From Chromatiales bacterium (GTDB lineage Bacteria > Pseudomonadota > Gammaproteobacteria > JAHELT01), in the NCBI GenBank assembly GCA_024644045.1, contig JAHELT010000007.1:36-64035 (forward strand): a stretch of 64,000 nt of DNA, given 5' to 3'. Shown piece by piece: positions 1,767 through 57,805 of the stretch. The first letter of the stretch is position 1. Each line of letters opens with the position of its first letter. The notes beneath the pieces were generated by a model. It was not told where the DNA came from, ran no database searches, and worked only from the letters and a program-made list of their open reading frames with translations. The position numbers and the translations under genes are program-made.

Positions 1767-3029
1767 CTAGCCCGAGTAGACGGGATAGCGGGCGCACAGT
1801 TCGAGCACCTGAGCACGCACCCGCTCGATCGTCTTTCCGTCCTTCACGTTGTCCATCACGTCGCACATCCACTCGGTGATCTGGCGCATTTCCGCTTCCT
1901 TGAAGCCGCGGGTCGTCGCCGCCGGGGTACCGACGCGGATACCGCTGGTCACGAACGGCGACTGCGGGTCGTTCGGTACCGAGTTCTTGTTCACCGTGAT
2001 GTTTGCGCTGCCCAGCGCCGCGTCGGCGTCCTTACCGGTGATCCCTTTTTCAATCAGGCTGACCAGCATCAGGTGATTGTCCGTGCCGCCGGACACGACC
2101 GCATAGCCGCGCGCCTGAAACACCTCGGCCATGGCCCGCGCATTGCTCACCACCTGCGCCTGGTAGTCCTTGAATCCCGGCTCCAGCGCCTCCTTGAACG
2201 CCACCGCCTTGGCCGCAATGACGTGCATCAACGGCCCCCCCTGCGTGCCTGGAAACACCAGCGAATTGAACTTCTTCTCCAGCGCCTCGTTGCGGCGCGC
2301 GAGAATGATGCCGCCGCGCGGGCCGCGCAGGGTCTTGTGCGTGGTGCTGGTCACCACGTCGGCGACCGGCACCGGGTTCGGGTAGTGACCGGTCGCGACC
2401 AGGCCGGCGACGTGTGCCATGTCAACCAGGAAAAAGGCGCCTACGCCGTCGGCGATGTCGCGAAAACGCTGCCAGTCGACGACCCGCGAATAGGCGGAGA
2501 AACCGGCGATTATCATCTTGGGGCGGTGCTCGTCGGCCTTAGCCGCAACTTCGTCGTAGTCGATTTCACCGCTCGCATCGTCCAGACCGTACTGCACGGC
2601 CTTGTAGAGCTTGCCCGAGAAGTTCACTTTGGCGCCGTGCGTCAGGTGACCGCCGTCGGCCAGGCTCATGCCCAGCACCGTGTCGCCCGGCTCCACCAGC
2701 GCCATGTACACGGCCGCGTTGGCCTGGGAGCCGGAATGCGGCTGCACGTTCGCGTAGTCGGCCCCGAACAGCCGCTTGGCCCGCTCTATGGCCAGCTGCT
2801 CGACCACGTCAACGTACTCGCAGCCGCCGTAATAGCGCTTGCCCGGATACCCCTCCGCGTACTTGTTGGTCATCACCCCGCCCTGGGCTTCCATGACCCG
2901 CGGGCTGGTGTAGTTCTCGGACGCGATCAGCTCGATATGCTCTTCCTGGCGCCGTTGCTCCGCCGCGATGGCCTTCGCCACGTCCTCGTCGTAACCCGCT
3001 ATACGCTCGCTCTTGTCAAACATCTGCAC
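1767..3029 (-). CDS. glyA: Serine hydroxymethyltransferase
   Basis: 420 aa. Motifs [28 protein letters not shown] and [12 protein letters not shown] (PLP lysine region) are diagnostic. Confidence 0.95.
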
Positions 3030-3368
3030 TCCTAGTCGATTGTCGCCTGGTCGTTCTCATGGGCCGGGGGTCTGACGTTGGTCAGGGCGGCGGCGCCGGC
3101 AGGCTCACCGGAACCCGTCAGCCTGACGCATAGATTACACATTGAGGATGCGGTGCGCTTTACCCCTTTCGCCAGGGGCTGGCGCATCATCGGCGAGCAG
3201 CGCGACCGCCGGCTTGCTCGCTCACGACACGGAGTTAGCTGCCAGCGACGCTGCGCCTCGGTGGATAGCGCCCCGCGGCGCCCGGGGAACGGAGCGCGCA
3301 TAGACAAACGGCGCGCCGCAAGCGGTGCGCCGTCGCAGGCGGCCGGTGCTGGAACGGAAGGGCGTGCG

Positions 3369-4097
3369 CTACTCGCCGAGCGGCAGGAATCGGGACAGCT
3401 TACCGTCGAGCTGCAGCATGCTGTCCTGTGCCACCAGCTCGTCGCGCAGACGCGCCGCCACGATACGCTGCAGCACGCCGCCCGGGTCGTCCAGACGCGA
3501 CGTGAGCCGCACTTTCACCGCCAGGGTCTGCGTGTGCCACAGGGTTTCTGTCAGATGCTCGAGCTCGCGTACGATCAGCGCTGCGATGCCCGCGGCCAGC
3601 GCCCGCTCAAACCCTTTGCCGCGGTGCACCGGCAGCACGCGAAGACTTTCCAGCGTGTATTGCACGCGTAACAGGGCGTCGCTGCTGCCGCGCTGCGGCA
3701 TCTGGCAGATCCGGCCGAAGCGTGCGATCGCTTTCATCTCCCGCTGCTGGTTCACCTCGATCAGGGCGACGTTGACGGCTTCGACGCACTCGGTCTGATC
3801 GCCGACCCGGCGTTCTGCCACGCCGGTGCGCTGCGGCTGGTCGCAGATGTCCATGATCTGCTCGAGCGCGATGCAACGCAGCGCCATGCGCTGCAGGCGA
3901 TGATGCGCCCACACACCCTCATCGGGCTCGGCGAACGCAGCATCGATATCTTCGTGCCCGAGCGTGTACTCGGGAAACGCCCGCGCGCTGGCAGGTATAT
4001 AGGGCGGGAACAAGGCCCCCAGCTGCAGTTGTGGTCCGCTGGTGGGAAGCGGATTGACCTCGGGCTGCGCACCCACCTGATTCACTTCTGCGGTCAT
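3369..4097 (-). CDS. Hypothetical protein (unrecognised family), upstream of glyA
   Basis: 242-aa ORF with ordinary amino-acid composition. It fills the gap between glyA and the divergent DUF1611 gene. No motif recognised. Confidence 0.4.
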   Translation of the reverse strand: MTAEVNQVGAQPEVNPLPTSGPQLQLGALFPPYIPASARAFPEYTLGHEDIDAAFAEPDEGVWAHHRLQRMALRCIALEQIMDICDQPQRTGVAERRVGDQTECVEAVNVALIEVNQQREMKAIARFGRICQMPQRGSSDALLRVQYTLESLRVLPVHRGKGFERALAAGIAALIVRELEHLTETLWHTQTLAVKVRLTSRLDDPGGVLQRIVAARLRDELVAQDSMLQLDGKLSRFLPLGE

Positions 4098-4281
4098 GCT
4101 CTGTAAGCCCCTTCTCCAAACCTGGGTGTTGATCGTGGCGGTACACGATCACTTCGCGTTGAACGGCATTGTTGTGCGAAGCCCCGGGCTTTGATGTGGT
4201 GCGCTTCACAATCTTGTCAGATCGGCTGAACATGCAGTCAAATAGCCCTTTCCACCGGCGCAGAACAGGTCACTCGAAACG

Positions 4282-5349
4282 ATGCGCACACCGGCTATCG
4301 TGTTGGCGAATGACGGCTATCGCACAGCCAACGGCAAACCCGCACACGGTCTGGTCCGTGGCAGCGACCGGTTTGACATTCAGAGCGTCATCGACCCGGA
4401 CTGCGCGGGCGAGGATGCGGGAACTCTGCTCGACGGAAAGGCCCGCGGCATACCCGTTGTAAAGAACATCGACGAGGCGCTGGCACACGCGCGAACGCCG
4501 CCGCAGGTATGCATCGTCGGCATCGCCACGCACGGCGGACGCTTGACGGAAACGTTGCGCGCGCAACTGCTGGAAGCCGCCGGATGCGGGCTGTCGCTGG
4601 TCAGCGGGCTGCACGATTTCATCGGCGAAGACCCCGAAATCAGCGCTGCGGCGCGCGCCGCCGCGGTGGACATCGTGGACGTGCGCAAACCGCCGCCGCG
4701 GGCCCAGCTCAGCTTCTGGGGGGGCCGTGTCGCGCAGATCCGTGCGATGCGCCTCGCAGTGCTCGGGACGGACTGCGCGGTCGGCAAGCGGACCACGTCC
4801 CGTATGCTGGTCAGTGCGCTGAACGCGGCCGGGATCCGCAGCGAGATGATATACACGGGGCAAACCGGCTGGATGCAGGGCGCGCGCTTCGGCTTCGTGC
4901 TCGACTCGACGCCGAACGACTACGTGAGCGGCGAGCTGGAGCAGGCGCTGCTGCGTTGCGCGCAATCCAGCGACCCGGACGTGATGGTAATCGAAGGCCA
5001 GTCGGCGCTGCGTAATCCGAGCGGTCCCTGCGGCGCCGAGCTGCTGCTGTCCGGCGACGTCTCGGGCGTCGTTCTGCAGCACGCGCCCGGCCGCACCTTT
5101 TTTGACGGCTTCGAGCATCTGGGCCGGCGCATCCCGTCGCTGCGCAGCGAGATCGAGCTGGTGTCGCTTTACGGCGTAGCCACGCTCGCGGTCACCCTCA
5201 ACGGCGACGGCCTGGACAGGCAGGCGCTGGCGGGACACCAGGCGGCTTACGCAGAGGAGTTGGGCATCCCGGTGATCGCCCCGTTGCACGACACCATGGA
5301 CAGTCTGGTCGGCGTCATACGGGCGTTTCTGACCGGTCCGGCCACCTGA
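4282..5349 (+). CDS. DUF1611-family protein (DgcN-like putative D-glutamate N-acetyltransferase)
   Basis: 355 aa. Resembles the DUF1611 family, whose members commonly sit near dipeptide epimerases and peptide transporters (motifs RMLVSALN and VIEGQSAL). Confidence 0.7.
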   Translation: MRTPAIVLANDGYRTANGKPAHGLVRGSDRFDIQSVIDPDCAGEDAGTLLDGKARGIPVVKNIDEALAHARTPPQVCIVGIATHGGRLTETLRAQLLEAAGCGLSLVSGLHDFIGEDPEISAAARAAAVDIVDVRKPPPRAQLSFWGGRVAQIRAMRLAVLGTDCAVGKRTTSRMLVSALNAAGIRSEMIYTGQTGWMQGARFGFVLDSTPNDYVSGELEQALLRCAQSSDPDVMVIEGQSALRNPSGPCGAELLLSGDVSGVVLQHAPGRTFFDGFEHLGRRIPSLRSEIELVSLYGVATLAVTLNGDGLDRQALAGHQAAYAEELGIPVIAPLHDTMDSLVGVIRAFLTGPAT

Positions 5350-5473
5350 CAGCGGTCGCGGCGCGCGAACGCGTCGTGCAAGACTCGCGCAGCGGATTTC
5401 TGACATAATCGGCGGAAATGGTTGCGTAAGCAACTCGAACGGGTCTCAACAGCCGGGAGCGGTTCGAACCACG

Positions 5474-7353
<1,880 letters not shown>

Positions 7354-47905: not shown

Positions 47906-48241
47906 TTACCAGTAGTGGCTGCGGCGGTGGCGGCTAGGATAGCCGTGGTAGTGATAGTAGTAGGCAGGCGGCGCGTAGTACGGGTAGTAGGGATAGGCCG
48001 GACGCGGGCGATGCCCCTGGCGATGCCCCTGGCGATGCCCATGGCGGTGCCTGCGCTGGTGCCGGTGACCGTTCCGGTAGGCGCGCCCATCGCCGCGCCT
48101 ATGCCCGTCGTGGCGCTGCGCCCGGCCCTGACCGTGACCGGTCTCGAAGATCGCGGACGCGTCCGCGTTCAAACCGTGGGCGGCGCCGAAGGCGGGTACC
48201 AGCAGCGCGCCGCATAGCAGTAATCCAACTGAGCTCTTCAT
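47906..48241 (-). CDS. Small secreted His/Arg/Gly/Tyr-rich low-complexity protein
   Basis: Signal peptide MKSSVGLLLCGALLVPAFGAA. Mature part HRRGDGRAYRNGHRHQRRHRHGHRQGHRQGHRPRPAYPYYPYYAPPAYYYHYHGY. Confidence 0.5.
   Translation of the reverse strand: MKSSVGLLLCGALLVPAFGAAHGLNADASAIFETGHGQGRAQRHDGHRRGDGRAYRNGHRHQRRHRHGHRQGHRQGHRPRPAYPYYPYYAPPAYYYHYHGYPSRHRRSHYW
47990..48060. repeat. Tandem 12-nt repeat (GATGCCCCTGGC-like) encoding the (QGHR)n segment
   Basis: ggcgatgcccctggcgatgcccctggcgatgcccatggcggtgcc seen directly in the sequence. Confidence 0.6.
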
Positions 48242-48403
48242 CAATCCACCCTCGTGGCGAAGTTCGGTGCGCACTCTAGCGGCGGGTCGCTGAACTCAAG
48301 CTGAACACACCGGGCGTATCGCGCGAAATTCGCGGCGGATGCCCTTGATGCGTCAACGTATATTCATTTCAATAGCGGACGCACCGACAACCGGAATCGC
48401 AAC

Positions 48404-49387
48404 GTGTCACGCACAGCCCTGGTATTCGTCGCTCTGCTGCTGGCCCTGGTCGCCAGCGGCGCTTACGCGCTGCTCGCCGGCACGATCAGCATCGAACCGT
48501 CGCAGCTCCTCGGCGTGCTCAGCGGGCGCGAGATCGGGCTCCCGAAACGCGTGGTGCTGGAGCTGCGTCTGCCGCGTGCGCTTGCCGCAGTGACCGTCGG
48601 CGGGCTGCTGGCACTCGCCGGCGTGCTGCTGCAGGTGCTGCTGCGTAACCCGCTGGCGGACCCCTACATTCTCGGCATATCGGGCGGCGCGGCCGTCGGA
48701 GCGCTGGGCGCCATGTTGCTCGGCGCTGGAAGCGGCGTGCTCAGCGGCAGCGCGATGGTCGGTGCACTGCTTTCTATGCTGATGGTGTTCGGCATCGCGC
48801 ACGGCCGCGGCAGCTGGTCCTCGACACGCCTGCTGCTGACCGGTGTGGTGATCGCCGCCGGCTGGGCCGCGCTGGTGAGCTTCATACTGGCGCTCGCCCC
48901 GGAAGCCAATCTACGCGGCATGCTGTTCTGGCTGATGGGCGATCTGAGCCACGATGCGCCGTATTTCCTGGGCATCGGCATGCTGGTGTTCGGCCTGCTG
49001 GCCTCGATGCTGGCCGCGCGCAACCTCAACATCCTGGCGCGCGGCGAAATGCAGGCGGTGGCGCTCGGCGTAAACGCGCGGATTCTGCGCGTGATCGTCT
49101 ACGTCCTGGCCTCCTCGCTGTGCGCAATCGCCGTTACCATCGCCGGCACTATCGGTTTTGTCGGGCTGGTGGTGCCGCACATGCTCCGGCTTGCCGGGAT
49201 CACCGATCACCGGGCACTGATCCCCGCCGCCGTGCTGCTCGGCGGCGCGTTGCTGCTGTTCGCCGACACCCTGGCGCGCACCGTCATGGCGCCTCAACAG
49301 CTGCCGGTCGGCGTCCTGACCGCCATGCTCGGCGTGCCGCTGTTCCTGGTGCTGCTGTACCACGGCACCCGCCACCAGCAGGGTTAG
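48404..49387 (+). CDS. btuC: Cobalamin/iron-siderophore ABC transporter permease (FecCD family)
   Basis: 327 aa FecCD-family permease with conserved GGxxxxG regions. Located in the btuB locus. Confidence 0.8.
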   Translation: MSRTALVFVALLLALVASGAYALLAGTISIEPSQLLGVLSGREIGLPKRVVLELRLPRALAAVTVGGLLALAGVLLQVLLRNPLADPYILGISGGAAVGALGAMLLGAGSGVLSGSAMVGALLSMLMVFGIAHGRGSWSSTRLLLTGVVIAAGWAALVSFILALAPEANLRGMLFWLMGDLSHDAPYFLGIGMLVFGLLASMLAARNLNILARGEMQAVALGVNARILRVIVYVLASSLCAIAVTIAGTIGFVGLVVPHMLRLAGITDHRALIPAAVLLGGALLLFADTLARTVMAPQQLPVGVLTAMLGVPLFLVLLYHGTRHQQG

Positions 49388-49417
49388 CCCGAACGAACCC
49401 GTTAAACCATCGGCGTT

Positions 49418-50962
49418 TCAGGGAGCCGTAAAGAATTCGATCTGCTGCGGATTGAGATTGGTCACCACGGAGCCGATGACCACGTCGGTGGCCGTGTCGA
49501 GCACATGCACGGTGGCGTTACTGGCATCGCTGACCCACAGGTTTCCACCGGGTCCGATGGAGATGTCCGCGATATCGATCCCGGTCAATGCCGCCGCGAC
49601 GGGCAGCCCCACCGCCCCGGAGCCGGGGTCGAAGGTGAACAGCGTGGTGTCGCCGAATCCCGCGTAGCCGACCAGGTAACCCTTGTTCGGCGAGGCGATG
49701 GCCAGGGCGCTGGTCTTACCGTGAGCGCTGCCGGCCGCATCGTCGTCGACCACGACCCGCGACGTGTAGGTGTCCAGATCAATGCGCTCGACTCCGCCGC
49801 TCGAGGCAGCGAAGAAATCCCCGACTCCCTGCACGTACAACGCGTTTTCCGCGGCCATCACGACCAGGTCGTTGTTGGGGTTGCGGATCGCCAACGGTAT
49901 TCCTAAGAGCGTCGGATCGCGGCCGGTATCGATTTCCTGATCCGTTTCGATGTCGAACACGGCAATGTAGGCGGTATTGTCGGGCGCGAAAAAAACATCC
50001 CTGTCGAGGCGTTGCAGGGCAATGAACAGGCGTCCGGCGCCGATCACCGCGGCCGCCATTTCGACGATACCGTCCGCATCGGCGTAAGCGCTCAAGTCAA
50101 GCTCACCGAGTTTGAACTGCGCAAAGCGGGACGCGGCCGGATTGACGATCCACGCGGTGTTCTTCTCGTAGCGCGTGAGATACGCCTTGCCCGAACTGGC
50201 TACCACCAAGGTACGCGGATTGGTCTGGGCGGCGCTGTCGCCCGGATCCCTCACCGAGTACTGCCATTCCGGCGATGCGATGTCGTCGTCGCGGTCGAAC
50301 TTCGCCACGTTGGCCCCGTCGAAGCGTTCGATCCGGTAGGCTTTCTGCCCGGCAACGGCGATGTTGAGATCCGAATGTGTCGGCGCCAGGTCGTTCAGGG
50401 CGGACAGCATTCCGCCATCGTTGAGAATCAGGCTGTGTGCACCGCTGGAAAAGTCAGGTGCGACCGTGACCACCGCGGCCGTGTACGGGACGAAGCCCTC
50501 GTCGTTTTCGATCGTACCGCTAGCGCTGTCGAGCGCCACGGATGCGACGTTGGCGGACACGTTGCTCAACGTCAGGGTGAAGAACTCATCGGCTTCGTTG
50601 CCGCCGAACGCGACCTGGCTGTCGTCGTCACCGATCACATCGACGACCAGCGTGGTATGCCGCGCCCCGGCCGGAATCGTGCCCGAACCGGTGACCGCGA
50701 CATAGTCCTCGCCGGCAATTGCCGACCCATCGCTGGTTGCGTAATCGAAGCTGATGTCTTCGGCCACCGGCGTCGGCACGGTGACGTAGAAGCGCATCTG
50801 CGCCATTCCGGTGTCGCCCTCGACCACCGCTGTGTCGTTGATACGCAATCCCGAGACCGGCGTCCCGGTGCCGGCCTGGATCCGACCGGCATTGTCGCAG
50901 CCGGCCACGACAAGCAGCGCGGCGCCGATCAGCGCCAGGCTGCACGAACTGTTTATTTTCAT
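49418..50962 (-). CDS. Lipoprotein with N-terminal Calx-beta domain and C-terminal YVTN-type beta-propeller
   Basis: Lipobox LLVVAGC after MKINSS. Calx-beta motif (DYVAVTGSGTIPAGARHTTLVVDVIGDD). Repeated beta-propeller-like blades ending NLWVSDASNATVHVLD. Immediately downstream of btuB on the same strand. Confidence 0.7.
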   Translation of the reverse strand: MKINSSCSLALIGAALLVVAGCDNAGRIQAGTGTPVSGLRINDTAVVEGDTGMAQMRFYVTVPTPVAEDISFDYATSDGSAIAGEDYVAVTGSGTIPAGARHTTLVVDVIGDDDSQVAFGGNEADEFFTLTLSNVSANVASVALDSASGTIENDEGFVPYTAAVVTVAPDFSSGAHSLILNDGGMLSALNDLAPTHSDLNIAVAGQKAYRIERFDGANVAKFDRDDDIASPEWQYSVRDPGDSAAQTNPRTLVVASSGKAYLTRYEKNTAWIVNPAASRFAQFKLGELDLSAYADADGIVEMAAAVIGAGRLFIALQRLDRDVFFAPDNTAYIAVFDIETDQEIDTGRDPTLLGIPLAIRNPNNDLVVMAAENALYVQGVGDFFAASSGGVERIDLDTYTSRVVVDDDAAGSAHGKTSALAIASPNKGYLVGYAGFGDTTLFTFDPGSGAVGLPVAAALTGIDIADISIGPGGNLWVSDASNATVHVLDTATDVVIGSVVTNLNPQQIEFFTAP

Positions 50963-51001
50963 CCTGCTCTCCGTTGATTCATTCGATGCTCGCACGAACC
51001 T

Positions 51002-53056
51002 TCAAAACCGCAGCCGCGCACTGGCCAGGAGTGCGCGTCCCGGTCGCGGAAACCCATTGAAGTCCTGCAAACGTTCATCGAACAGGTTGTTGACCCGTAC
51101 TTCGGCTTCCCACCGGGGCGTCGTTCGCTGCACGAGCACGCTGCTCAGCGACTGGTCTTCGGCCGGCAGCAGGTTGGCGGAATCGAAAAACATGTCGCGG
51201 CGCAGCTGCGATTCGAACGCGTAACGCCAGGGCGGACGGGCGTAAGCGATGCTCGCGCGATAGGTCTGCGCAAAACGGCCCGGCAGCTCGTTGCCGTCGA
51301 ACGCCGTCACTGCGCTTTCAATCTCGGTGTCCATCAGGGTGGCTGTGAAATCCGTTTGCAAACCGTCGAAGGTCTGCAGCGAAACGCCCAGCGAAATGCC
51401 TTCGATGGTCGCGCTTGACACGTTCTCCGAGCGCCCGACGCCCTGCGCGTCGAACACCCGCGCGATCAGATCGTGCGCGCGGTTGTAGAAGATCTCGCCG
51501 GTGAGTCGCGCCTGGTGATACCAGGTGCGGGGCGCGAACAAGGTGTACTGCAGGCCCAGGTCGACGTTGGTCCCGGTCTCCGGCACCAGCAGCTCGTTAC
51601 CGAGAAAAAAGCCGCGATCGCCGAACAGCTCGAAAAACGCCGGAATGCGGGCGTAGCGCCCGACGTTCGCCTTGATGTGCGATTGCGCGTTCAGCACGTA
51701 CTTGAGACCGGCCTGTGGACTGAAGAATCGATAGCTCTCGCGGGTCACGGTCGGGGGAATGCCGGCGCTGGCATCGGTCGCGACAAGGTCGTCCTGGACC
51801 CACTGATTGCGCAGCACACCGCTCAGTATCAGGCGGTTGGCGAGCACGTAACGATTGAGCTCGATGCCTGCATTGAACGCGTCCCGCCGGCTTTCACTGT
51901 TCGCCAGCACGCCCAGCAGATCCTCGAATTCGTAAGTTTCGCGGTAACCTTCGAGCACCCCGCGCACGCTGGAGTCCCCGGTCGCGTGATTGACAAAACC
52001 GTCGACGCCTGCACGGCGGGTAGTGCCGCGCGTATGCTGTACCTGCAACCCGATCTGCCCGGTGCGATCGTCGAAGACCTCCTGCTTGTCGGACGCGAAG
52101 ACATTCACGCTGGCGCTGGTGCGTGCCCCACCCAGACGCAGGAAATCCAGCCGGTTGTACAGGCGCAGGGTCTCGGTCTCGAGACGCGCGCGGGTGTCGG
52201 CATCGTTGCTCAGATCCGGCAGACCCTGATCCTTGTCGAAGCGCTGTAGCGCAAGCGTCGATGCCGTGTCCGCGCTTAGCTCGTGGCGCCACTTGCCAAA
52301 CAGCGTGTGCTGACGGAAATCGGCGTTGTTGCGCGGCTCGTCGAAATCGTCCTCGCCGTTGAAGGCGGTACCGTTATCATTGCGGATTTCGAAATCGTTG
52401 TCGCTGGCGAGCGCGCTCGCGTTCAGCACCACGCTGTCACGCTCGTATGCCTGTTGCCAGCCGGCCGCCAGCGCGCGGGTGGCGAAAGAACCGGCGGCCG
52501 CTTTGAGGTTGCCGGCCGTCTCGCGCGTCGCCTTCGCGGTGACCAGATTGACGGCACCGCCCAGCGATGCGCCGCCGAGCTCAAGGGGGGTTGCGCCGCG
52601 AAAGATCTCGATCCGCTCCAGCTGCTCGAGGTCGATGGCGCTGAGATCCACGCCGCCGCCCGCCGCGTCATTGAGGGGCACGCCGTCGAGATAGATCAGG
52701 ACCTGCTCGCTGGAGGCACCGCGCAGGCTGACCGTGGAGAAGCTGCCGAGGCCGCCGCTGCTCTGAACCTGCACGCCCATTGCCTGTTGCAAGACCTGTG
52801 GCAGGTCCGTGACCCCGACGGCAAAGGCTTCACGCGGCAGGACCTCGTACTGCACGGGCGTGCTGTAAAGACTGACCTCGCCCGGGGCGGCCAGCTCGTA
52901 CACCCCGGCGGCCTCGCTGATGGTGATCCGCAGCGGCACGTCCGCAGCGACCGTGGTGTTCGCCAGCAACCAGGCGCCGAGCGCCATTACGCAACGGCAC
53001 ATCGCGCGACCCGCCGATTGGCGCGCAATACGTGCTGCATGCCGTTGAGTCCGCAT
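51002..53056 (-). CDS. btuB: TonB-dependent outer-membrane receptor, cobalamin type
   Basis: Signal peptide and plug domain. C-terminal ...ARLRF terminal Phe. Preceded by a cobalamin riboswitch and flanked by btuCDF homologues. Confidence 0.85.
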   Translation of the reverse strand: MRTQRHAARIARQSAGRAMCRCVMALGAWLLANTTVAADVPLRITISEAAGVYELAAPGEVSLYSTPVQYEVLPREAFAVGVTDLPQVLQQAMGVQVQSSGGLGSFSTVSLRGASSEQVLIYLDGVPLNDAAGGGVDLSAIDLEQLERIEIFRGATPLELGGASLGGAVNLVTAKATRETAGNLKAAAGSFATRALAAGWQQAYERDSVVLNASALASDNDFEIRNDNGTAFNGEDDFDEPRNNADFRQHTLFGKWRHELSADTASTLALQRFDKDQGLPDLSNDADTRARLETETLRLYNRLDFLRLGGARTSASVNVFASDKQEVFDDRTGQIGLQVQHTRGTTRRAGVDGFVNHATGDSSVRGVLEGYRETYEFEDLLGVLANSESRRDAFNAGIELNRYVLANRLILSGVLRNQWVQDDLVATDASAGIPPTVTRESYRFFSPQAGLKYVLNAQSHIKANVGRYARIPAFFELFGDRGFFLGNELLVPETGTNVDLGLQYTLFAPRTWYHQARLTGEIFYNRAHDLIARVFDAQGVGRSENVSSATIEGISLGVSLQTFDGLQTDFTATLMDTEIESAVTAFDGNELPGRFAQTYRASIAYARPPWRYAFESQLRRDMFFDSANLLPAEDQSLSSVLVQRTTPRWEAEVRVNNLFDERLQDFNGFPRPGRALLASARLRF

Positions 53057-53074
53057 CCGCCGCCCTTCGCAACG

Positions 53075-53335
53075 TTAACGACTGGCAAGCAGGTCGGTCT
53101 CCGGGCTCATGGCGGGCATCACCCGCGCGGATTGCCTTCCCGCAGAGTGAGCGCCTGTCCGGCATCGCGCCAGCGGCGATCGCAGTGCAGTGGCGGTGAA
53201 TCCACGCTGCACAGGCCTTTGCCTGTGCGCCATTTACCGTTGCGAGGGCAGCGTCAGAATTGCACTGACTTCCCGGGACACGCGCTGCGCGCGAGTCCAG
53301 CACCTGATTGCAACCGGTTCACCATATAGCAGTGC
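53075..53335 (-). promoter_or_regulatory. Cobalamin (AdoCbl) riboswitch in the btuB 5' leader
   Basis: Minus-strand sequence contains GGTGAACCGG...GGGAAG... elements and a B12-box AGCCCGGAGACCGACCTGC (reverse complement of 53089..53107) just upstream of the btuB start. Confidence 0.55.
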
Positions 53336-53394
53336 TCCCTCGGGAGGCAAGCGATACCGCGGCTCGGCAAACGCAACGGCGGAATTTCCCTACA

Positions 53395-54165
53395 ATGCGC
53401 GGCATGCTGGAAGTGCGCGACCTGGACGTGGAGATTGCCGGCAAGTCGGTGTGCCGGTCGCTGTGTCTTGCGATGAACGGTGGCCAGCGCTGGTCGGTGC
53501 TCGGGGCCAACGGCGTGGGGAAAACCACGCTGCTGCACACGCTCGCCGGGCTGCGCCCGGCTAGCGCCGGGCACGTGCTGCTCGACGGTCAACCGCTTGC
53601 CGCGACACGGCCGCGGGCCCGCGCGCGGCGCGTCGGTGTGCTGTTCCAGGACCACGACGACCCGTTTCCGGCCACCGTCCTGGAGACCGCCCTGATCGGC
53701 CGCCACCCGCACGTCGCACCGCTCGCCTGGGAATCGCGCGCCGACGTGGCGCTCGCGGAACAGGCTCTGCAGGCGGTTCAGCTCGACGGGTTCGCGCGGC
53801 GCAGCGTCACGACGCTCTCCGGCGGCGAGCGCCAGCGCCTCGCCATAGCATCGCTGCTCACGCAGGATCCGCAGGTCTGGCTGCTGGACGAGCCGATCAA
53901 TCACCTCGATCTGCATCACCAGATTGCGCTTCTCAAGCTGCTGCAGACGCGCACCTCAGACAGCGGCGCCACCGCCCTGATGACCCTGCACGATGTGAAC
54001 ATGGCGGCGCGCTTCTGCAACCACATGCTGCTGCTGTTCGGCCACGGGGAAACGCTGCACGGGCGCACCGACGAGGTTCTCTCGGTCGGCAACCTGGAAC
54101 GCCTGTACGGCCATCCGATCGAGTGCCTGTCGGTCAACGGCCGGCGCGTGTTCTTACCGGCTTGA
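53395..54165 (+). CDS. btuD: Cobalamin/iron-chelate ABC transporter ATP-binding protein (FecE/BtuD-like)
   Basis: Start at MRGMLEVRDLDV. Walker A GANGVGKTT, signature LSGGERQRL, Walker B LLDEP. Confidence 0.8.
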   Translation: MRGMLEVRDLDVEIAGKSVCRSLCLAMNGGQRWSVLGANGVGKTTLLHTLAGLRPASAGHVLLDGQPLAATRPRARARRVGVLFQDHDDPFPATVLETALIGRHPHVAPLAWESRADVALAEQALQAVQLDGFARRSVTTLSGGERQRLAIASLLTQDPQVWLLDEPINHLDLHHQIALLKLLQTRTSDSGATALMTLHDVNMAARFCNHMLLLFGHGETLHGRTDEVLSVGNLERLYGHPIECLSVNGRRVFLPA

Positions 54166-54520
54166 GCCATCGTTGAGGCCGTGCACTGCTGCGGCGGGTT
54201 CCGCTAGCCCGCATGTTGCATGAAGGATAACTCCGGGCATCCCTGCGCCTTGCGCCCTGCGGGTCAGCTAATGGCTGTGCAAATTGTTCCAGACAATTCA
54301 GTCGCCTTCTCAGGGAAAATCTGGCTGAGTAGATTTGACGATCGCGTGCAGAGAAATAGTCGGACTCTTGCTCAAGGGCGATCGTCCAATATACGACGCC
54401 AGATTCTTCCTGAAAGTGAACCCAAGCTGTAGTTCGGCAATAACGCACAAGTACCTGCGTAACGGTTTGATTTGATTGTGAAACGCAGGGGACTCGCGAC
54501 CGCTTTCGTGCAAATGCGGG

Positions 54521-55402
54521 CTAGGGTTTCACTCTCGACAGTGCGAGCTGTTCACACAACCGTTGCATGCCTTCGAGAATGCGCGGCGTGTGACGCTGGA
54601 TGAGCTCCGGGGGCACGAAGTAGAGATTGCCCCGACGTACCGCCTCGAGCTCCGGCCAGCGGCGCCAGTGGTCCAGCCACTGCGGCCTCTGCTCGCGCAT
54701 ACCGCTGGCGATGATCACCTGCGGGTTGGCGCGCAGCACGGCCTCGGTATCCAGGCGCGGCGCGAGATTGGGCAGATCGGCGAACACGTTGCGCCCGCCG
54801 CAGCGGCGCAGCACATCGCTGATCAGGTGCTTCCCGTTCACCGTGATCAGCGGCCGGTTCCACACCTGGTAGAACACCGAGACCACACGCGTACCGGCGG
54901 CCTGCGCCTGCAGCGACTGCAGCCGTGCATCGAAGTCGCTCGCCGCCTTGTTTGCCTGCGCGTCGGTGCCGGCGACCCTGCCGAGCAGCCGCAGTGTCCT
55001 CGACACATCCTCCAGCGTACGCGGTTCGCTGCGCAGCACGGTCAGGCCGAGCCGCTGCAGCGTATCGACCTCGCCGCGCGGATTGCCGCTGATCCAGGCC
55101 ACGATCAGGTCGGGTTTGAGGGCGAGTATCTTCTCGGTGTCAAATTTCTTGTAATTACCGATCCGCGGCAGGGCCGCCGCCGCCGCCGGGTAGTCGCTGT
55201 AGTCGACGCCGGCCACGACCCTGTCGCCGGCACCGGCCGCGAACAGCAACTCGGTGATAAAAGGCGCCAGGCTGATGATCCGCGCAGCCGGTCGGGCCAG
55301 CACGATACGCCGCTGCGCGTCGTCGACGACATCGACCCCGGCGCCGGCGGGCAGCGCGGCCGACGCCGCCCAGAGCACTATGATGGCAACGGCGGCCCGC
55401 AT
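54521..55402 (-). CDS. btuF: Periplasmic cobalamin-binding protein (class-III SBP, BtuF-like)
   Basis: 293 aa with signal peptide. Family-8 periplasmic binding protein (PBP8) features (IISLAPFITELLFAAGAGDRVVAV). Stop abuts the cobS start. Confidence 0.75.
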   Translation of the reverse strand: MRAAVAIIVLWAASAALPAGAGVDVVDDAQRRIVLARPAARIISLAPFITELLFAAGAGDRVVAGVDYSDYPAAAAALPRIGNYKKFDTEKILALKPDLIVAWISGNPRGEVDTLQRLGLTVLRSEPRTLEDVSRTLRLLGRVAGTDAQANKAASDFDARLQSLQAQAAGTRVVSVFYQVWNRPLITVNGKHLISDVLRRCGGRNVFADLPNLAPRLDTEAVLRANPQVIIASGMREQRPQWLDHWRRWPELEAVRRGNLYFVPPELIQRHTPRILEGMQRLCEQLALSRVKP

Positions 55403-56140
55403 TCAAACGCGCAGCGCAACCGCCATCAGCGCGCCCGTCTCCAGCACCTCGATGGTGGCGCCGGTGGTGTCGCCGGTCGCACCGCCGAGGCGCCGGCACA
55501 TCAGATGGCGGCAGGCGAGAAACAGCACGGCCATCGCCCCGGCACTCACCAGCCCGTCCACGCCGGACAGCAAAGTGACGGCCAGCACGCACGGCGTGAC
55601 CACTTTCCAGGCCAGCGCGCCGGTGCTGGCGCGCGCCAGCGCTTCGCCGAGCCCGCCCGGGCGCACATACTCCGTCGTCCCGTACAGCAGCGGGACCGCG
55701 CACCGCGCGAGGGCGCACACCCCCAGCAGAATCCACGTGCGTTCGTGCTCGACGAGCGCGACAAGCGCGGCGAACTTGCCGATCAGGATCAGCGCGACCG
55801 CGCAGGCGCCCGCCGCCCCGATTCGCGGATCGCGCATGATCTCGAGGCTGCGCGTGCGATCCCCGTAGCCACCCAGCCAGGCGTCGGCGCTGTCCGCCAG
55901 CCCGTCCAGGTGCAGGGCCCCGGTGATCGCGACCCACGCCAGGAGCACCAGCGCCGCCAGCGTGCCGTGAGCGGCGGTGGGCCAGCTTGCCAGCGCATGC
56001 AGCGAGGCCCCGATCAACACACCGACCACCGGATACCAGTAGAGCGACCGCGCCGGGTCGGCGTCCGTGATCCGCCCGGCATGCACCGGCAGTCGCGTCA
56101 GCAGCTGCAGCGCCGCGCGCAGGGAAGCCGGCAGCGTCAT
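55403..56140 (-). CDS. cobS: Adenosylcobinamide-GDP ribazoletransferase (cobalamin synthase)
   Basis: ~245 aa from MTLPASLRAALQLLTRLP. Conserved HLDGLADSAD motif. ATGA overlap with cobC. Confidence 0.85.
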   Translation of the reverse strand: MTLPASLRAALQLLTRLPVHAGRITDADPARSLYWYPVVGVLIGASLHALASWPTAAHGTLAALVLLAWVAITGALHLDGLADSADAWLGGYGDRTRSLEIMRDPRIGAAGACAVALILIGKFAALVALVEHERTWILLGVCALARCAVPLLYGTTEYVRPGGLGEALARASTGALAWKVVTPCVLAVTLLSGVDGLVSAGAMAVLFLACRHLMCRRLGGATGDTTGATIEVLETGALMAVALRV

Positions 56141-56736
56141 GCGTGGCTGCGCAGCACCACGCGGCGTGCCTCCGCACCTTCGGTGTAAACAGCGAGCTGC
56201 GACAGGCACGCGTACCCGACTTCCAGGCTGAACAGGTTCTGCGCGGGAATCTGCAGCACGCTGCTCAGAATCACACGGATCGTGCCGCCGTGGGCGACGA
56301 TCAGCCAGCGCCCTTCGGCGCACTCGACGACGCGCTGCCAGGCGGTCATCACCCGCGCCTGAAAATCGTCGAAAGCCTCGCCCCCCGGCGGCGGGTTGGC
56401 GATCGGGTCCTCGAAGAAGCTGCGCACCCGTTCCGGGGCCCGGGTCCACAGCACGTCCGGCGGCTGACCTTCCCACTCGCCGAAATCGATTTCCGCGAAC
56501 CGGCGGTCGACCGACACCGGCGTGTCGCGCTGCTGCGCGATGTGCTCGGCAAAGGCAGCGCATCGCCGCAACGGCGAGGTGACGATATGCGACCAGGCTG
56601 CGCAAGGCTCCACTGCACGCTGCATCTGCTCCCAGCCGAGCTCGCTCAACGGATCGTCCACCCGGCCGCGCACACGGGTTCCGCCGACCGGTTCACCGTG
56701 ACGCAGCAGCTCGATGACGGCGCGGGTGTCACGCAT
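56137..56736 (-). CDS. cobC: Alpha-ribazole-5'-phosphate phosphatase (histidine phosphatase family)
   Basis: LLRHGEPVGG (RHG motif), later IVAHGGTIRV. Start uncertain (56736 or 56751). Confidence 0.75.
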   Translation of the reverse strand: MRDTRAVIELLRHGEPVGGTRVRGRVDDPLSELGWEQMQRAVEPCAAWSHIVTSPLRRCAAFAEHIAQQRDTPVSVDRRFAEIDFGEWEGQPPDVLWTRAPERVRSFFEDPIANPPPGGEAFDDFQARVMTAWQRVVECAEGRWLIVAHGGTIRVILSSVLQIPAQNLFSLEVGYACLSQLAVYTEGAEARRVVLRSHA

Positions 56737-57805
56737 CACCGCGATCCGCAACGCCCGCTTCGGCGAAGGTGGCCATACCGTTGTGCAACTCGCATGCGCT
56801 GCGCAGCAGGTTCATCGCCAGCGCCGCACCGCTGCCCTCGCCCAGGCGCAGGTCGAGATCCAGCAGCGGCCGCGCACCCAGCGCCTCCAGCAGCAGACGG
56901 TGCCCGGGCTCCGCCGAGCGATGCGCGAACACCAGCCAGTCGCGCGTGGCGGGCTGAATCCGGCAAGCCGCCAGCGCCGCGGCGCCGGCAATGAAACCGT
57001 CGACCAGCGCAGTCACGCCGGCCTGCGCGCAAGCAACGTAGGCACCGGCCATGGCGGCGAGTTCAAACCCGCCGAGTGTCTGCAGCACCTCGAGCGGCCG
57101 CGCCGGATCGGGGGCGTGCAGGCGCAGCGCTTCGCGGATCACGTCGACCTTGCGAGCCACACCGGCGACGTCCAGCCCGGTACCCGGACCGGCGGTTTCC
57201 TGCGCGTCCCGCTCGAGCAGTGCGGCGGCGACCGCGGCGGCGGCGGTGGTGTTGCCTATGCCCATGTCGCCGGCGATGAAAACGTCCGCGCGGTAGTCGA
57301 TTGCGCGCGCAACGGCATCGCGGCCGGCCCACATCGCCGCGGTGAGCTGCGCCGGCAGCATGGCAGCGGCGCACCGCAGGTTCTCCGTGGCAGCACCGGC
57401 ACGGGCGACGATCACCCCCGCTACGCTCTCGCGGCTGCACAAGGTTCCCACGTCAACCACCTCCAGGCGTGCACCCAGCTCGCACGCCAGCACGGAAATC
57501 GCCGCACCCCCGTTCGCAATGTTGCTCAGCATTTGCTGCGTGACCGCCTGCGGGTAGGCGGCAACACCTTCGGCCACGACACCGTGATCGGCGGCGAACA
57601 CGCTGATGAACACGCGTTGCGCCCGCGGCTTGTCGGTACCCTGCATGGCCGCCAGATCGATCGCGATCTGTTCCAGCAGGCCCAGCGAGCCCGGCGGCTT
57701 CGTCAGGGTGCTCTGGCGTTGCGCGGCCCGTTGAGCCATCACCAGGTTGCGCTCTCGTGGCGGCGTCTGCAGCCAGGCGTCAGCGCCCGTTTGCATCTTC
57801 ACCAC
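56729..57805 (-). CDS. cobT: Nicotinate-nucleotide--dimethylbenzimidazole phosphoribosyltransferase
   Basis: LTKPPGSLGLLE and GDMGIGNTT motifs. Start may be 57796. Confidence 0.85.
   Translation of the reverse strand: MVKMQTGADAWLQTPPRERNLVMAQRAAQRQSTLTKPPGSLGLLEQIAIDLAAMQGTDKPRAQRVFISVFAADHGVVAEGVAAYPQAVTQQMLSNIANGGAAISVLACELGARLEVVDVGTLCSRESVAGVIVARAGAATENLRCAAAMLPAQLTAAMWAGRDAVARAIDYRADVFIAGDMGIGNTTAAAAVAAALLERDAQETAGPGTGLDVAGVARKVDVIREALRLHAPDPARPLEVLQTLGGFELAAMAGAYVACAQAGVTALVDGFIAGAAALAACRIQPATRDWLVFAHRSAEPGHRLLLEALGARPLLDLDLRLGEGSGAALAMNLLRSACELHNGMATFAEAGVADRGDA

Follow-up and report, generated by a model that had tools for sequence, protein, structure and literature searches.

Does a bacterium outside Bacteroidota possess a counterpart of BtuG, the propeller lipoprotein which has a femtomolar affinity for vitamin B12 and decides the competition for this vitamin in the gut? 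The question is raised by a stretch of 64,000 nucleotides of a Chromatiales bacterium (contig JAHELT010000007.1 of assembly GCA_024644045.1), called hereafter the window. A gene located on its minus strand (49418-50962, stop codon at 49418-49420) encodes a 514-aa lipoprotein composed of a Calx-beta domain and a seven-bladed, BtuG-like beta-propeller, and lies beside the gene of a TonB-dependent transporter (TBDT) preceded by a cobalamin riboswitch. A preliminary description of the window, made from the sequence alone, had proposed that this lipoprotein may be a BtuG-like protein capturing B12 at the cell surface. The BtuG-like character is supported by the fold (Foldseek), by the ancestry (hhalign) and by the context (a TBDT in 70 of 72 loci and a riboswitch in 61 of 63). 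The reading retained here is that the window protein is BtuG-like and handles corrinoids as a partner of the BtuB-type transporter encoded next to it, its topology being left open; we give this reading a probability of roughly 0.6. The propeller may further capture corrinoid at the cell surface.

Domain organization of the window protein

The N-terminus of the protein reads MKINSSCSLALIGAALLVVAG|CDNAG, in which the lipidated Cys, as read from the sequence, is residue 22. The signal peptide and the lipobox VAG|C22 (aa 1-22; 50897-50962, minus strand), followed by D-N-A at positions +2 to +4, conform to the pattern [LVI][ASTVI][GAS]C of bacterial lipoproteins, i.e., of signal peptidase II substrates. 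A GGAG ribosome-binding site is found 5' of the ATG, and an alternative GTG start is present at 50995.

The Calx-beta domain (aa 44-142; 50537-50833, minus strand) is recognized by Pfam PF03160 with 33 bits for a gathering cut-off of 27. In the AlphaFold2 (AF2) model of the window protein this region is a beta-sandwich (pLDDT 55-80). Of the 45 aligned members only 5, those of the window clade, possess it, and it probably acts as a spacer or stalk. The propeller (aa 157-514; 49421-50494, minus strand), delimited by AF2, Foldseek and hhalign, is the conserved core of the family. In the same model, built from a 45-sequence alignment with an overall pLDDT of 81, it occupies aa ~157-514 with pLDDT mostly >90, and seven blades are counted from the strand list.

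Lipobox, Calx-beta domain and propeller are thus all recovered as announced. The propeller fold is that of the AF2 model; the sequence repeats are all sub-threshold (YVTN TIGR02276, E 0.0015; NHL, E 0.024). TIGR02276 gives 18.5 bits for a cut-off of 27.85, with a single repeat in the window protein, and YNCE (PF21783) is absent from the 25 most frequent of the 37 Pfam families matched by the 45 members. The window protein shares the broad fold class of YncE and is not a member of the YVTN/YncE family. No NCBIfam model describes its propeller.

Structural comparison with BtuG

The comparison with BtuG by structure, which had been called for in the preliminary description, was made by Foldseek against PDB with two independent AF2 models, i.e., that of the window protein and that of P0008 (model pLDDT 91), a minimal gammaproteobacterial member of 383 aa that is ~46% identical to the window propeller. 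With the window model, the top 13 PDB matches are all Bacteroides BtuG (BtuG2/BT1954, BtuG3/BT2095, BtuG1 and 3DSM), with E from 2e-12 to 4e-11, target-normalised TM of 0.73-0.78, rmsd of 3.7-4.5 A and 12-14% identity. With the P0008 model, BtuG again occupies ranks 1 to 13 (TM 0.74-0.80, rmsd 3.1-3.5 A). The other propellers, i.e., an archaeal YVTN S-layer protein, XusB, YncE, AztD and 6-phosphogluconolactonases, have TM of 0.5-0.70 and larger rmsd. Both predicted propellers are therefore seven-bladed and superposable on BtuG2. It is mainly on these two rankings of predicted structures that the specificity of the apparent resemblance with BtuG rests.

Profile comparison with BtuG

The family alignment was compared by hhalign with a reference set of 13 diverse BtuG sequences (Wexler et al. 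2018, Table S2; PMC6143338). The probability is 97.9%, with E 5.6e-13 and a score of 102.6 over 311 collinear columns. Window aa 157-513 are paired with BtuG2 aa 44-366, and every blade is covered. Reversed or column-shuffled BtuG alignments score at most 18 and 12-column block shuffles at most 42, vs. 102.6 for the real alignment. Circular permutations are uninformative as controls, since the local alignment recovers the collinear part. E. coli YncE, taken as a single sequence, is aligned with the family over 58 columns only, i.e., one blade. With this single YncE sequence as the comparison propeller, the profile-profile homology indicates a shared, though remote, ancestry of the family and BtuG.

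Genomic context of the propeller gene

In the window, the TBDT gene (51002-53056, minus strand) encodes a protein of 684 aa with the Pfam domains Plug and TonB_dep_Rec_b-barrel, and is BtuB-type by context. E. coli BtuB is among its best relatives of solved structure (E 5e-13), chiefly over the plug domain, and the NCBIfam model TonB-B12 gives 130 bits, far under its cut-off. The cobalamin riboswitch aptamer (53075-53322, minus strand; Rfam RF00174, 69.2 bits for a gathering score of 31.5, full-length match to the model) ends 19 nt 5' of the listed start codon of the transporter. The stop codon of the transporter gene is separated from the ATG of the propeller gene by 39 nt, and the lipoprotein gene is thus, as first described, co-oriented and nearly contiguous with a riboswitch-controlled btuB.

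On the other side lies the gene of a BtuC-like FecCD permease (48404-49387, plus strand; Pfam FecCD E 1.7e-79; NCBIfam BtuC 220 bits for a cut-off of 334). It is convergent with the propeller gene, with 30 nt between the two stop codons. The position between btuB and btuC given in the preliminary description is hence correct, but the orientation is not shared with btuC.

The conservation of this arrangement was studied in 80 loci obtained by a genome scan with one genome per species. Transporter orthologues were located by tblastn with the window proteins, and adjacency was assessable at 72 loci. An orthologous TBDT adjoins the propeller gene in 70 of the 72: in 61 it lies immediately upstream and is co-oriented, in 7 it is just downstream and convergent, and in 2 it is downstream on the same strand. 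These orthologues have 32-40% identity with the window transporter, and 72% in the syntenic locus L001.

Of 16 loci analysed with Rfam, 13 have RF00174 5' of the unit; in two of the remaining three the upstream sequence is too short. A nhmmer profile made from the Rfam hits agreed with Rfam on the 16 loci and was then run on the full set of 80. Where the upstream sequence is long enough (63 loci), the transcription unit begins with a B12 riboswitch in 61, including three longer btuFCD-TBDT-propeller operons and one AdoCbl-II riboswitch (RF01689). Neither nhmmer nor Rfam finds a B12 riboswitch in L051 (TBDT 3360-5300, propeller 5547-6617) and L077 (propeller 478-1566). The propeller gene has its own riboswitch ~300 nt upstream in all seven convergent loci and in L025, L040 and L057, which means that the propeller gene is under B12 control in its own right and does not simply receive it from the transporter.

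Apart from the TBDT, the genes that recur widely among clustered neighbourhood open reading frames (ORFs) are btuF (27 loci), btuD (25 loci) and btuC (19 loci), and the cobalamin genes cobO, cobQ and cobN recur in subsets of the neighbourhoods. The conserved unit is riboswitch-TBDT-propeller, and the adjacency of btuC is incidental. The propeller gene is adjacent to btuB in a B12-riboswitch-regulated unit, as btuG is, in the window as in the family. The orthologues are found beside this transporter and not mainly beside heme or siderophore receptors, the latter being an outcome which the preliminary description had named as one that would speak against its proposal.

Some riboswitches of these loci deserve a mention. 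The AdoCbl-II riboswitch (46.6 bits, RF01689 and not RF00174) lies at 936-1022 of L070, from Bdellovibrionales, where the TBDT is downstream of the propeller gene. In several Desulfobacterota loci, i.e., L024 (1204-11555), L025, L009 and L058, a span of 21 kb contains three or four cobalamin riboswitches. In L025 (9180-9666) two aptamers are back-to-back and divergent, ~120 nt apart.

Size and hosts of the family

The protein search yields four close full-length homologues (73-92% identity) from gammaproteobacterial metagenome bins, and ~270 more proteins that match the propeller alone (41-53% identity), none of which has a recorded Pfam assignment. The profile search among 1.84 billion cluster representatives yields 494 clusters at E <= 1e-30 and 1253 clusters at E <= 1e-10. 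Such a gene beside btuB had been presented as unusual; with 494 clusters (50% identity, E <= 1e-30) in the family it is in fact not rare there. The proteins of the family are annotated as hypothetical in the sources.

The hosts of the 80 loci are Gammaproteobacteria bins (Thiotrichaceae and Cocleimonas among them), many Desulfobacterota (among these Desulfonema magnum 4be13, Desulfosarcina and Desulfatiglandales) and one Bdellovibrionales bin. Members outside the window clade carry PKD, FN3-like or DUF5719-like domains, unassigned regions (one of ~135 aa) or no additional domain. Among the extra domains of the longer members, the known modules for B12 binding, such as DUF4465 or BtuH, are absent. 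In P0180 (752 aa), the family propeller (aa 41-405) is followed by a region (aa 449-600) weakly matching Pfam Lactonase and DUF5074, and this protein may be a tandem of two related propeller types.

Anchors of the family members

Most of the gammaproteobacterial members shown are short lipoproteins, with ~20 residues from the Cys to the first strand and often a C-S-Q-D/E start. The window clade is characterized by C-D-N or C-E-T, a linker of ~25 residues and then the Calx-beta domain. In the Desulfobacterota members an ordinary, cleavable signal peptide is present, and their mature protein begins at the propeller. Many of them end with an acidic/Gly-rich linker and a «GGCFI» motif, often followed by a hydrophobic helix and a basic tail (P0005, P0009, P0012, P0018 and P0092; loci such as L004 and L006). 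The C-terminus of P0092 matches NCBIfam NF041770 (CFI_box_CTERM) with 108 bits. Other Desulfobacterota members end in a FN3-like domain, in an unassigned ~135-aa domain or in a DUF5719-like domain. No paper on the CFI-type sorting signal was found in the literature.

Among 265 representatives, at least 114 have a lipobox and at least 60 have a CFI tail, with an overlap of one. This near mutual exclusivity suggests that lipobox and CFI tail are alternative tethers, and that the family is usually membrane-tethered. The listed members with neither lipobox nor CFI tail carry ordinary cleavable signal peptides. The lipoprotein export signal of Bacteroidota does not apply to these hosts, which are not Bacteroidota. 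In general, spacer domains and tripartite C-terminal tails of the sorting type are typical of proteins exported past the outer membrane.

Proposed mechanism

The corrinoid-handling partnership could operate as follows. At low adenosylcobalamin the riboswitch would open, and the transporter and propeller genes, 39 nt apart, would be expressed together. The propeller protein would be exported, lipidated at Cys22 and held by a flexible linker and the Calx-beta spacer. Corrinoid would be bound on the propeller face carrying the A-[A/P]-D-[Y/F]-S-S-G loop, the putative counterpart of the N-E-G-x-F contact loop of BtuG, and would be passed to, or received from, the BtuB-type transporter. BtuF and BtuCD would then import the corrinoid, and the neighbouring CobT, CobS and CobC could complete incomplete corrinoids. 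The established parts of this scheme are the fold, the remote homology, the conserved pairing of the genes and the control by B12 riboswitches; corrinoid binding, physical contact between propeller and transporter, and topology are inferred.

Contrary evidence and alternative explanations

A number of observations weigh against a BtuG-like, corrinoid-handling protein, and they concern (i) the closeness of the homology, (ii) the cellular location and (iii) the ligand.

As regards the homology, seven-bladed propellers all resemble one another, and the only other propeller used as a profile control is a single YncE sequence. When single sequences are compared by hhalign, the matches of YncE are short and local whereas those of BtuG are full-length and collinear, but the scores are alike (30-46). 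Pfam DUF5074 (PF16819), matched by 12 of the 13 reference BtuGs with E down to 9e-23, does not match the window protein at E <= 0.1, and only 4 of the 45 family members match it weakly (best E 0.0012). Searched against PDB sequences, the family profile finds BtuG only at E 0.015-0.14, over one blade motif. Within the propellers of YVTN/YncE type, the family is thus a remote homologue of BtuG or its sister family, and falls outside the BtuG family in its present definition.

As regards the location, the protein could be a periplasmic corrinoid binder, either anchored in the inner membrane, anchored in the inner leaflet of the outer membrane, or unattached, which would take B12 at the periplasmic exit of BtuB and then hand it to BtuF or buffer it. 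We consider this unlikely, although several features agree with it. The residue at +2 of the window protein is Asp (C-D-N), and Asp or Glu is found at this position in the window clade (C-D-N, C-E-T). In E. coli, Asp at +2 is a signal of Lol avoidance, i.e., of retention in the inner membrane. This rule was established for Enterobacterales and may not hold in the uncultured lineage of the window. The analysis of the +2 position, which had been suggested together with the structure comparison, is ambiguous: the Asp of the window is the inner-membrane signal of E. coli, while most other gammaproteobacterial members have C-S-Q-D/E. About one third of the 265 representatives have neither lipobox nor CFI tail, as estimated by a crude pattern scan that misses some lipoboxes. 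Many Desulfobacterota members either have no anchor or have a C-terminal hydrophobic helix with basic residues which, if uncleaved, would tether the protein to the inner membrane, facing the periplasm. Moreover, no Slam-like gene and no other surface-export or accessory gene is conserved among the clustered ORFs of the 80 neighbourhoods.

A precedent for a periplasmic protein exists in E. coli, where the periplasmic YVTN propeller YncE is encoded beside the TBDT gene pqqU; deletion of yncE, however, has no phenotype for the uptake of pyrroloquinoline quinone (PQQ) (bioRxiv 10.1101/2022.06.07.495086). The closest structural relatives, i.e., the BtuGs, occupy the extracellular face of BtuB (PMC10404256). 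The homology with BtuG, the linkage of the gene to the outer-membrane transporter (in 70 of 72 loci) rather than to the btuFCD genes (in 19-27 loci), and the presence of spacers (Calx-beta, PKD, FN3-like) and of sorting-type tails lead us to favour slightly, by analogy with BtuG, the cell surface over the periplasm.

As regards the ligand, the contacts of BtuG2 with B12 are E55, G56 and F58 in the first loop, then Q93, N107, S131, an Arg, W149, W194, S195, Q219, Y239, W272, Y316 and Y335 (bioRxiv 10.1101/2024.02.16.580637; PMC10404256). Phe58 touches the DMB base of B12 (bioRxiv 10.1101/2024.02.16.580637). In the hhalign register, an aromatic residue (Y, F or W) is found at the position equivalent to F58 in 45 of 45 aligned members, within the most conserved loop of the family, A-[A/P]-D-[Y/F]-S-S-G-A-H-S. 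In the same 45 members E55, Q93, N107, W149, W194, Q219, Y239, W272, Y316 and Y335 are not conserved. At the other contact-equivalent positions the family has Ala, Asn, Arg or Asp, or the residue varies, single-residue equivalences being uncertain in such a remote alignment. Some are conserved within the family as different residues, i.e., N248, R264, D320 and D470. Of 93 loop positions on the face that may bind the ligand, 20 are conserved, vs. 8 of 70 on the opposite face, which is only a trend (p = 0.10), and conserved positions are not significantly enriched at the mapped BtuG2 contact sites. Judging from these sequences, corrinoid binding, if real, would use a chemistry other than that of BtuG.

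This difference of contact residues is the main internal argument for a non-corrinoid ligand. The protein would then handle something else that is required at low B12, for instance cobalt as a metallochaperone similar to the AztD propeller, or be an enzyme such as a SGL/Drp35-like hydrolase acting on the cargo of the transporter. B12 riboswitches also govern cobalt uptake genes, N248, R264, D320 and D470, which replace aromatic contacts, form a pattern nearer to metal or polar-ligand sites, and there are weak sequence matches to the SGL and Drp35 lactonase-type propellers. The zinc-chaperone propellers AztD are among the structural matches (TM 0.5-0.57). Nevertheless, the structure clearly matches the BtuGs better than it does AztD or the lactonases, and no catalytic-family model of Pfam or NCBIfam is above threshold in the window protein or the 45 members. 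The inner-membrane partner is of BtuFCD type (Peripla_BP_2 and FecCD), a carrier of chelates such as corrinoids and not of free metal ions. A non-corrinoid ligand or an enzymatic role is for us quite improbable.

Finally, a generic propeller, at the surface or in the periplasm, whose function is unrelated and which neighbours btuB by chance in this genome, would fit the lack of a matching curated family and the label of hypothetical protein in the sources, but such a hitchhiker is hardly credible and was rejected on the context statistics, i.e., the pairing with a TBDT (70/72) and a B12 riboswitch (61/63) across two phyla and ~70 loci, and the riboswitch which the gene keeps for itself when apart from the TBDT leader.

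Comparison with known systems

The putative BtuG-like partner of the BtuB-type transporter is to be compared with BtuG itself. BtuG1, BtuG2 and BtuG3 of Bacteroides thetaiotaomicron (DUF5074; PDB 3DSM, 8BMY, 8BAI, 8OKV, 8BMX) are, like the window protein, seven-bladed propellers of similar protein size. In both, the N-terminus carries a lipoprotein signal followed by a short tether, and the gene lies beside btuB under a B12 riboswitch. Some BtuGs (BDI3418) have an extra N-terminal beta-sandwich. They differ from the window protein by the sequence (only 12-15% identity) and by the DUF5074 match, which the latter lacks. The contact residues are lost in the new family except at one aromatic position, and its hosts are Gammaproteobacteria and Desulfobacterota, without the Bacteroidota lipoprotein export signal. 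Asp at +2 and a Calx-beta spacer are found in the window, whereas many relatives have a C-terminal CFI-type tail or no anchor. As far as the sequences tell, ligand-contact residues, phyla and anchoring would be new with respect to BtuG, while scaffold, context, probable role and distant ancestry would be common.

E. coli YncE is also a seven-bladed propeller of the YVTN-type superfamily, found in Proteobacteria beside a TBDT for an organic cofactor, and the PDB depositors label some BtuGs «YncE family protein». Its structural match to the window family is however weaker (TM 0.61-0.64, rmsd >5 A), its profile alignment covers a single blade, and it is soluble, non-lipoprotein and divergently transcribed. 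In E. coli K-12 (L081; NC_000913, 1518000-1527000) yncE divergently adjoins, at 2964-6369 of this locus, pqqU, the gene of the TonB-dependent PQQ transporter, and YncE has a recorded DUF5074 match. YVTN-type propellers may thus be paired with cofactor transporters more widely than in BtuB-BtuG.

The lids of other TBDTs, i.e., XusB (DUF4374), HmuY, SusD and the neisserial TbpB and HpuA, are lipoproteins encoded, as here, beside a TBDT, and they capture its ligand; XusB is in addition a propeller (structural match of TM 0.60-0.65). These lids differ by their ligands and families and have no link with B12. Furthermore, TbpB and HpuA are Slam-dependent, and no Slam-like gene is conserved near the loci of the new family.

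According to Price and Arkin, transporter lids are almost confined to Bacteroidota (bioRxiv 10.1101/2023.03.17.533168). In a BlastP search of gut genomes at 1e-10, Wexler et al. 2018 found BtuG homologues in Bacteroidetes exclusively (PMC6143338), and a September 2026 review discusses BtuH and BtuJ, but not BtuG, beyond Bacteroidota (PMC13616437). No report of a proteobacterial or deltaproteobacterial counterpart of BtuG was found in the literature on DUF5074, propellers, riboswitches and TonB, the coverage of which is incomplete.

On this basis a broader view can be put forward, tentatively and with the odds somewhat against it: B12 capture of BtuG type would not be a speciality of Bacteroidota. 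It would also exist as an ancient, highly divergent sister family in sediment Gammaproteobacteria and sulfate-reducing Desulfobacterota, which would contact the ligand differently and whose anchors would be interchangeable (in one phylum an N-terminal lipid, in the other a C-terminal sorting tail of CFI type). A BtuG-like propeller outside Bacteroidota would be unexpected to a specialist of B12 transport.

If this is true, there are several consequences: (i) these proteins would be the first candidate transporter-associated capture proteins of BtuG type in Gammaproteobacteria and Desulfobacterota; (ii) surface transporter «lids» would be widespread outside Bacteroidota; (iii) the same scaffold would have a second, chemically different solution for the recognition of corrinoids; (iv) an unannotated family of at least about 500 sequence clusters would receive a name and a testable function. 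Lipoprotein-assisted scavenging of corrinoids would also reach marine and sediment communities, the structure of which B12 auxotrophy and cross-feeding help to shape.

Neighbouring genes in the window

Upstream of the riboswitch and divergent from it is the gene of a BtuD-like ABC ATPase (53308-54165, plus strand), recognized by Pfam ABC_tran; the NCBIfam models of corrinoid, heme and F420 ATPases are all sub-cut-off. Its listed TTG start (53308) overlaps the aptamer of the opposite strand, so that the true start is probably further downstream. Then come the gene of a BtuF-like periplasmic binding protein (54521-55402, minus strand; Pfam Peripla_BP_2; NCBIfam BtuF 180 bits for a cut-off of 234) and, at 55403-57805 on the minus strand, the genes for assembly and salvage of the nucleotide loop, i.e., cobS, cobC (His_Phos_1) and cobT (DBI_PRT), with Pfam E-values of 1.7e-48 (CobS), 1.3e-44 (His_Phos_1) and 6.8e-122 (DBI_PRT). 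With the btuD- and btuF-like genes, cobS, cobC and cobT around the unit, the locus is a corrinoid uptake and salvage island.

Just upstream of btuC, an ORF on the minus strand (47906-48274) encodes a signal-peptide-like N-terminus and a tail rich in His, Arg and Tyr (HGHRQGHRQGHRPRPAYPYYPYY...). As the syntenic locus L001 does not conserve it, this ORF may be spurious or lineage-specific.

In up to ~10 gammaproteobacterial loci per gene, a Bat-like set, i.e., MoxR AAA, DUF58, VWA, DUF4381 and VWA-TPR, lies on the opposite strand 5' of the riboswitch (4808-5851 of L030, 3667-7333 of L052, 693-1235 of L042 and 1425-3545 of L010), without an obvious link with B12.

It must be added that btuC, btuD and btuF are distributed over different strands around the riboswitch-TBDT-propeller unit (48404-55402 of the window). 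The same strand layout is found in L001 (3756-11481), where the DNA identity is 74.6% over window 48464-54131.

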